A stretch of 5,545 nucleotides of DNA from a virus. Its lineage: Duplodnaviria; Heunggongvirae; Uroviricota; Caudoviricetes. This document shows, piece by piece, positions 2,531 through 4,918 of this stretch; the stretch's first letter is position 1; every line of letters begins with the position of its first letter. The notes under the pieces were generated by a model that ran no database searches, was not told where the DNA came from, and was given only the letters and a program-made list of their open reading frames with translations. The position numbers and the translations under genes were made by a program. The DNA is taken from IMG/VR virus record IMGVR_UViG_2529292726_000016. One strand, 5' to 3'.

Positions 2531-4918
2531 GTGCTCAGTGATTTCTGCTCGGCGATGCGCTGTATGCCGGTATGGAACGGGCAGACGCTGACGTTCGTGC
2601 AGGACCGACCATCAGATAAGGTGTGGACCTATAACCGCAGTAATGTGGTGATGCCGGATGATGGCGCGCCGTTCCGCTACAGCTTCAGCGCCCTGAAGGA
2701 CCGCCATAATGCCGTTGAGGTGAACTGGATTGACCCGAATAACGGCTGGGAGACGGCGACAGAGCTTGTTGAAGATACGCAGGCCATTCTCCGTTACGGT
2801 CGTAACGTCACGAAGATGGATGCCTTTGGCTGTACCAGCCGGGGGCAGGCACACCGAGCCGGGCTGTGGCTGATTAAAACGGAACTGCTGGAAACGCAGA
2901 CCGTGGATTTCAGCGTGGGCGCAGAAGGGCTTCGCCATGTGCCGGGCGATGTTATTGAAATCTGCGATGATGACTATGCCGGTATCAGCATCGGTGGTCG
3001 CGTGCTGGCGGTGAACAGCCAGACCCGGACGCTGACGCTCGACCGTGAAATCACGCTGCCATCCTCCGGCACCACGCTGATAAGCCTGGTTGACGGTGAG
3101 GGTAATCCGGTCAGCGTGGAGGTCCAGTCCGTCACCGACGGCGTGAAGGTGAAAGTGAACCGGGTTCCTGACGGCGTTGCTGAATACAGCGTGTGGGGGC
3201 TGAAGTTGCCGACGTTGCGCCAGCGCCTGTTCCGCTGTGTGAGTATCCGTGAGAACGACGACGGCACGTATGCCATCACCGCCGTGCAGCATGTGCCGGA
3301 GAAAGAGGCCATCGTGGATAACGGGGCGCACTTTGACGGCGACCAGAGCGGCACGGTGAATGGTGTCACGCCGCCCGCGGTGCAGCACCTGACAGCCGAA
3401 GTCACCGCAGACAGCGGGGAGTATCAGGTACTGGCCCGCTGGGACACGCCGAAGGTGGTGAAGGGCGTGAGCTTTATGCTTCGCCTGACCGTGGCCGCGG
3501 ATGAAGGCATTGAGCGGCTGGTCAGCACGGCCCGGACGGCGGAAACCACATACCGCTTCACGCAACTGGCGCTGGGGAACTACAGGCTGACAGTCCGGGC
3601 AGTAAATGCCCGGGGACAGCAGGGAGACCCGGCGTCGGTATCGTTCCGGATTGCCGCCCCGGCAGCGCCGTCGCGGATTGAGCTGACACCGGGCTATTTT
3701 CAGATAACCGCCACGCCGCATCTTGCGGTTTATGATCCGACGGTACAGTTTGAGTTCTGGTTCTCGGAAAAGCGGATTGCGGATATCAGGCAGGTTGAAA
3801 CCACAGCCCGCTATCTTGGTACGGCGCTGTACTGGATAGCCGCCAGTATCAATATCAAACCGGGCCATGATTATTACTTTTATATCCGCAGTGTGAACAC
3901 CGTTGGCAAATCGGCATTCGTGGAGGCCGTCGGTCGGGCGAGCGATGATGCGGAAGGTTACCTGGATTTTTTCAAAGGCAAGATAACCGAATCCCATCTC
4001 GGTAAAGAGCTGCTGGAAAAAGTCGAGCTGACGGAGGATAACGCCAGCAGACTGGAGGAGTTTTCGAAAGAGTGGAAGGATGCTAACGATAAATGGAATG
4101 CCATGTGGGCTGTCAAAATTGAGCAGACCAAAGACGGCAAACATTATGTCGCGGGTATTGGCCTCAGTATGGAGGACACGGAGGAAGGCAAACTGAGCCA
4201 GTTTCTGGTTGCCGCCAATCGTATCGCGTTTATTGACCCGGCAAACGGGAATGAAACGCCGATGTTTGTGGCGCAGGGCAACCAGATATTCATGAACGAC
4301 GTGTTCCTGAAGCGCCTGACGGCCCCCACCATTACCAGCGGCGGCAATCCTCCGGCCTTTTCCCTGACACCGGACGGAAAGCTGACCGCTAAAAATGCGG
4401 ATATCAGTGGCAGTGTGAATGCGAACTCCGGGACGCTCAACAACGTCACGATTAATGAGAACTGTCAGATTAAGGGGAAACTGTCAGCCAATCAGATTGA
4501 AGGCGATATTGTCAAAACGGTCAGCAAGTCTTTCCCCCGCACGAACAGTTATGCCAGTGGCACCATCACGGTAAGAATCAGTGATGATCAGAAATTTGAC
4601 CGGCAGGTCATGATACCGCCAGTGTTATTCCGCGGTGGTAAGCATGAGAATTTCAACAGTAATAACCAACAGTCATACTGGTATTCAACCTGCCGGTTAA
4701 GAGTGACCCGCAATGGTCAGGAGATTTTTAATCAGTCCACGACGGATGCTCAGGGCGTATTTTCCTCAGTTATAGATATGCCTGCCGGACAGGGGACGCT
4801 GACACTGACATTCACCGTATCTTCATCAGGAGCGAATAACTGGACACCAACAACCAGTATCAGCGATCTGCTGGTTGTGGTGATGAAAAAATCCACAGCA
4901 GGTATCAGTATCAGCTGA
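2531..4918 (+). CDS. J: J C-terminal fragment (795 aa as tracked from GTG 2531); probably not independently translated
   Basis: Same frame as 1520..2515. The 15 nt between the TAG and 2531 encode RKAWD in frame. No convincing RBS precedes the GTG at 2531. Contains FN3-like modules (about 3371..3660 and 3676..3935; motifs [22 protein letters not shown] and [19 protein letters not shown]) and the C-terminal receptor-binding region. TGA stop at 4916..4918. Confidence 0.8.

Follow-up and report, generated by a model that had tools for sequence, protein, structure and literature searches.

The J gene of a decaying lambdoid prophage in Escherichia coli carries an A8-type receptor-binding cassette predicted to use OmpC

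Does the divergent C terminus of a lambda-like J protein, encoded on a short contig of an Escherichia coli draft assembly, mark a recombination junction and with it a change of receptor? The DNA analyzed here (the window) is 5,545 bp long and is the whole of contig APXK01000138.1 from assembly GCA_000356245.1. It comprises the distal part of a lambdoid tail module, from the last ∼47 bp of L through K, I, and J to the start of lom, with the L-K-I-J-lom order of that module preserved. Its layout is collinear with that of lambda, of 434, and of E. coli prophages by the thousand. Of the complete RefSeq genomes, strain 510016 contains the nearest relative (99.6% identity), a defective, IS-riddled prophage adjoining prfC. 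The genes of the module and the two parts of J that concern us are as follows.

147–890: K.
788/887–1459: I.
1520–4918, + strand: lambda-type J, with the stop codon at 4916–4918.
1520–4439, + strand: lambda-like J scaffold (hub, FNIII/Ig domains, and tail-tip fiber), codons 1–973, assigned from amino acid identity and Pfam matches.
4541–4915, + strand: Ig-like C-terminal receptor-binding domain (RBD), Pfam PF12421 (Ig_GpJ_C), J residues 1008–1132.
From 4985/4986: lom/ail-family gene, of which the first 560 bp lie in the window.

Over its full length, J has the domain architecture of a lambda-type gpJ, the central tail fiber. Pfam matches run along it in the order FNIII-A_GpJ, Phage-tail_3, Ig_J, Ig_J_second, Phage_Tail_Tip, and Ig_GpJ_C, the last of these (E = 3.2e-36) covering residues 671–795 of the 795 amino acid product of one of the two open reading frames into which J is split (see below). 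The scaffold, residues 1–973, is 97.5% identical in amino acid sequence to lambda J and 98.3% identical to 434 J.

This similarity ends abruptly. In a three-way nucleotide alignment, the window and lambda agree without exception over at least 4250–4439. They first differ at 4440, in codon 974, which encodes Asn in the window and Ser in lambda, and from there to the stop codon nucleotide identity to lambda is ∼55%. Phage 434 departs from the window at the same point, with ∼55% nucleotide identity afterward, or ∼50%–60% across the RBD. Across residues 974–1132, the protein is 43% identical to that of lambda and 44% identical to that of 434, and the two phages share 38% with each other, such that near-identity is found neither with the LamB-binding allele of lambda nor with the C terminus of 434 J, the h434 allele. 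The initial annotation proposed that divergence of the C terminus in an otherwise lambda-like J would point to a recombination junction, and the fall from 97.5% to 43% identity at a sharp break, in place of near-identity with lambda J throughout, bears this out. The region had been drawn from 4400 (residue 961), ∼40 nt upstream of the actual junction at 4440. The C-terminal peptide quoted for it is exact (J residues 979–1132, ending at window position 4915), and its description as Ser/Thr/Asn-rich also holds, these residues making up 32% of the C terminus compared with 20% of the rest of J. The GC content of the C-terminal region is 0.468, compared with 0.582 in the rest of J.

On the right-hand side, similarity to 434 returns at ∼4880 with 94%–96% identity (94.3% by blastn over window positions 4880–5545), which indicates that the exchanged unit is a cassette of ∼440 bp. 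Its left border is the conserved motif that ends the central straight fiber, and its right border is the ...MKK..AGISI end of J together with the spacer between J and lom. The cassette would have arrived by exchange between these two conserved stretches. The features of this region are as follows.

4440–4918, + strand: exchanged receptor-binding cassette of J (codons 974–1132 and the stop codon), of A8 type, placed by alignments and a PDB match.
4880–4985, + strand: right-hand conserved flank of the cassette, comprising the final 13 codons of J plus the spacer before lom, placed where similarity to 434 resumes.
4936–4955, + strand: terminator-like hairpin followed by a T-run, 3′ of J.

The hairpin is GC-rich, GGGCGTCAGAAATGACGCCT, and is followed by TTTTTATT directly after the J stop codon; in 434, a terminator is annotated in the same interval, between J and a lom-like (Ail/PagC/OmpX) gene. 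The lom sequence itself (4985–5545) is of the 434 type, with 94%–96% nucleotide identity, and is essentially unalignable with the lambda lom region except for 88 bp at 82% identity (5457–5544). Compared with lambda, then, the mosaicism that begins at 4440 continues through lom; compared with 434, exchange is limited to the RBD.

The identity of the exchanged domain is given by a structural database match. The last 223 residues of J are identical, at 223 of 223 positions (E = 1e-144), to the PDB chain named “A8 gpJ 713” in entries 9WCA and 9WCB, and lambda J structures (8XCJ, 8XCK, and 8IYK) score far lower. The window thus has the A8 C terminus downstream of lambda residue 964. A PDB search with E. 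coli OmpC revealed that 9WCB also holds three chains named “Outer membrane porin C.” No paper specifically describing 9WCA or 9WCB was found in our literature searches; the co-deposition of these molecules, as named in the entry, and the genetics described next suggest that 9WCB captures the true RBD-OmpC interface.

Brödel et al. (2024, Nature, PMC11338833) joined natural E. coli gpJ C termini, A8 among them, to residue 964 of lambda gpJ. Recipients in that study either lacked lamB or were lamB/ompC double deletions carrying plasmid-borne ompC variants, and the genotype given for the strain producing A8 is lamB- and delta-OmpC (PMC11338833). The A8 chimera delivered DNA into ∼90% of cells with MG1655 or EDL933 OmpC; a second chimera, 1A2, works with EDL933 OmpC and not with MG1655 OmpC, and 21 of 23 OmpC variants supported delivery by at least one of these two chimeras (PMC11338833). 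We aligned window positions 4440–4918 with the supplementary DNA sequences of that paper. The A8 sequence gave 460 matches, 8 mismatches, and 13 gap columns (∼98% identity), the gap columns being bases dropped when the sequence was machine-read from the PDF. The 1A2 sequence gave 318 matches, 94 mismatches, and 129 gap columns. Since the supplementary DNA is imperfect in this way, it is the PDB protein sequence that establishes the exact match. Peptide searches of the same supplements returned no match, because the sequences there are given as DNA. We considered whether the supplementary sequence matched here was that of GpJ 1A2 and rejected this, as the headings run 1A2 and then A8, and the PDB match is independently to A8.

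Considered together, the PDB identity and the supplementary DNA with its genetics are two independent lines of evidence that the window encodes the A8-type, OmpC-specific RBD. The annotation had suggested that such a C terminus would mean a different receptor, and this is upheld, the protein being identical to a domain that uses OmpC and not LamB. We hold with high confidence that, taken as a whole, the locus is best explained as an A8-type RBD for OmpC rather than LamB that arrived as a cassette of ∼440 bp and is here a relic. The A8 module has already been characterized by genetics and by a deposited structure, and is not a new specificity. The junction region is the same in the A8 chimera and in the window, the artificial fusion lying at lambda residue 964 and the natural break at codon 974. 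The window differs from the chimera in two respects. The chimera was built on lambda J, whereas the module in the window sits on a natural lambdoid scaffold 97.5% identical to that of lambda; and J in the window is interrupted by a TAG codon at position 332. The A8 experiments were thus carried out on a scaffold ∼2.5% different from the one here, and OmpC-dependent, LamB-independent adsorption is predicted for this J by analogy, from the identical domain on a lambda scaffold and its co-deposition with OmpC.

How such a domain would act can be modeled on the lambda gpJ-LamB structures and on A8 gpJ solved with OmpC. The RBD of lambda is Ig-like and trimeric, with bottom loops L1–L4 inserting into the extracellular face of the LamB trimer; LamB binding spreads the RBDs, a signal passes up the central straight fiber, and the tail opens, and the loops of OmpC clash with the open lambda RBD (PMC11101478). 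By the same scheme, an intact virion with the A8 module would carry three Ig-like domains at the tip of the central fiber, with their bottom loops entering the extracellular face of the porin trimer. Porin binding would then spread the RBDs, trigger rearrangement of the fiber, and open the tail, with the link between binding and opening inferred in the case of A8. The differences between A8 and lambda are insertions, deletions, and substitutions in a few segments, and the framework strands are conserved (for example, DRQ, VIDMPAG, and LTFT). Judging from the alignment, the variable segments of A8 may be loops refitted to OmpC.

OmpC might be one of several receptors, with the domain recognizing another or an additional outer-membrane protein such as OmpF, FhuA, BtuB, or OmpX. 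There is precedent for this, as lambda J is able to evolve use of OmpF (PMC11101478), and the J protein of Salmonella Gifsy-1 binds OmpX and BtuB besides OmpC (PMC12312913), from which additional receptors for A8 are conceivable. However, delivery by A8 was measured in an ompC/lamB double deletion complemented by ompC variants, 21 of 23 such variants were accessible to A8, 1A2, or both (PMC11338833), the structure was deposited with OmpC, and the data point to no other receptor. We regard a broader receptor range as unlikely and retain OmpC as the receptor of the A8 module.

The initial annotation also described this region as the likely host-range determinant. This stands in that the region encodes an RBD with a receptor type other than that of lambda, and fails in that the RBD cannot currently act in this genome, given a nonsense codon in J and an IS insertion in the prophage. 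That J is not one continuous 1132-codon open reading frame had been overlooked. The two lesions are as follows.

2513–2515, + strand: in-frame TAG at J codon 332, which is CAG (Gln) in lambda, 434, and strain 510016.
1–100, + strand: 3′ end of istB with the right end of the IS21-family element ISEc10, joined to the last ∼47 bp of L.

The TAG splits J into open reading frames of 331 and 795 amino acids, and J is accordingly a pseudogene or an amber allele. A 71-mer around the TAG lacks a perfect match across all 4,062 complete E. coli genomes in RefSeq, and an exact-pattern scan of GTDB representative genomes likewise found the context absent. An exact protein look-up, by contrast, places the identical 331 amino acid truncated product in three public assemblies, GCA_000356245.1, CP025886.1, and JAAPHT010000059.1. 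Its presence in two assemblies other than our own indicates that the TAG is real and inherited rather than a read error. At the left end of the window, positions 1–100 are 99% identical to copies of ISEc10 and include the last ∼29 nt of istB, and the lambda-like match begins at 90–95. L is intact in two relatives with the same TAG (loci L006 and L007), so the ISEc10 insertion is specific to this strain. This copy of J is very probably not functional. The RBD would be a relic in a decaying prophage, following a CAG-to-TAG change in J and the cutting of L by ISEc10, and a functional J would be expected only in an amber suppressor host of the supE type, inserting the ancestral Gln.

We also considered whether the stop codon and the IS junction are artifacts of sequencing or assembly, in which case the source strain would have an intact, working J. 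In favor of this, the 5.5-kb window makes up an entire contig of a draft assembly, IS repeats are a frequent place for contigs to end, and the 18 SNPs clustered in K might stem from collapsed paralogous prophages. However, the TAG and the 331 amino acid product recur unchanged in two further assemblies, of which CP025886.1 is a 5.0-Mb contig, and the junction between IS and L is a defined sequence with no run of ambiguity. The chance that these lesions are artifactual is slight, and we take the decay of this prophage as genuine.

The K cluster is an observation in its own right. TAG aside, the window differs from strain 510016 by 18 substitutions and one indel, every one of them inside a stretch of ∼590 bp at 140–728, and positions 729–5545 are otherwise identical to that strain apart from the TAG. 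The two other TAG-carrying assemblies give the same totals against the window, 18 mismatches and one gap. The cluster reflects either a short recombined patch in K or the collapse, during draft assembly, of paralogous copies of the prophage.

Comparison with other J proteins places the A8 module among alleles of one domain family. The RBD of lambda J (8XCJ, 8XCK, and 8IYK) belongs to the same Pfam family, likewise sits at the tip of the central fiber, and presumably uses the same trigger mechanism, but its receptor is LamB, and it is 43% identical to the OmpC allele of the window in residues 974–1132, with indels. The shared family (Ig_GpJ_C) and a whole-length alignment of the last 223 amino acids with lambda J in 8XCJ/8XCK (E = 7e-77) could be taken to mean that the C terminus is of lambda type and, though diverged, retains LamB binding. 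This is very improbable, given that the low identity is accompanied by indels in the segments that vary among alleles and that the identical A8 domain delivered DNA to a lamB/ompC-deleted recipient with plasmid ompC (PMC11338833).

434 J uses OmpC too, and shares with the window its scaffold, its lom, and the left break point of the cassette, but at 44% identity in the RBD the two are independent alleles for the same porin. That the C terminus is itself the classical OmpC-using h434 host-range module of phage 434 is scarcely credible, for although 434 J uses OmpC (cited in PMC11101478) and the scaffold (98.3% amino acid identity) and lom (94%–96% nucleotide identity) are close to those of 434, the alignment of the RBD (44% amino acid and ∼50%–60% nucleotide identity) refutes it, and Megablast matches to 434 and lambda h434 leave the RBD segment out. 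The module in the window is thus identified with A8 and not with the alleles of lambda or 434.

1A2 gpJ is, like A8, a natural E. coli gpJ C terminus that uses OmpC, and is a different allele from that of the window. Gifsy-1 J is also lambda-like, with a C-terminal domain that binds OmpC irreversibly and triggers DNA ejection; it is 18% identical to lambda in the C-terminal region (PMC12312913), and we liken it to the window by description only. Closer to the window is the DEF10-type allele (locus L009, 301–779), which has 82% amino acid identity (129 of 158) and ∼77% nucleotide identity to the window RBD, with two segments unchanged and differences elsewhere. On this comparison of sequences, it is a sub-variant of the A8 family. 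We asked whether this ∼77%-identity allele (951 records) is 1A2 and rejected the assignment, the DEF10 copy giving 331 matches, 120 mismatches, and 86 gap columns against 1A2. No report of the receptor or the range of OmpC variants of the DEF10-type allele was found.

The A8 allele is mainstream, and is carried by plaque-forming and Stx-converting phages. Among 5,426 complete E. coli genomes, the 479-bp cassette is present at ≥99% identity in 1,195 records and at 95%–99% in 298 more, with the DEF10-type sub-allele at ∼77% identity in ∼950 further records of the same set. The cassette is also 99%–99.8% identical in the isolated phages Turner, 2H10, PhiR29_2, and SPF_0923 and in many Stx1- and Stx2-converting phages. 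For the PhiR, Turner, and 2H10 phages, our literature searches found no specific information on receptors.

The locus therefore serves as a worked example of modular host-range exchange, in which a cassette of ∼440 bp retargets the same lambdoid tail from LamB to OmpC. The receptor becomes predictable from sequence wherever the module sits in an intact J, in E. coli prophages and in long-tailed Stx-converting phages alike. Since the copy in the window is broken, it adds nothing new beyond one more case of prophage decay. An incoming lambdoid phage might still acquire the cassette through homologous recombination. We give little weight, however, to two more far-reaching roles: that the defective TAG lineage of three assemblies is a reservoir of the intact A8 cassette, picked up through near-identical flanks by superinfecting lambdoid phages that thereby switch from LamB to OmpC, or that the 795 amino acid open reading frame is expressed alone as a soluble protein that binds OmpC and might, for instance, block superinfection.

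Two further observations concern relatives of this prophage and of its cassette. PhiR29_2 (PV340557.1) carries the same RBD allele at 99.6% identity, and its J (1726–5122) is annotated as two overlapping coding sequences, 1726–3717 and 3695–5122. This split suggests a frameshift or a sequencing error, at a place other than that of the TAG in the window. In related defective prophages (locus L003, 21297–23973; locus L006, 15873–16996), a gene with a reverse-transcriptase domain lies downstream of the side tail fiber genes, and in L003 it is adjoined by a SLATT-domain gene that is interrupted by IS1. These genes, which lie outside the window, may be retron-like or other defense cargo.
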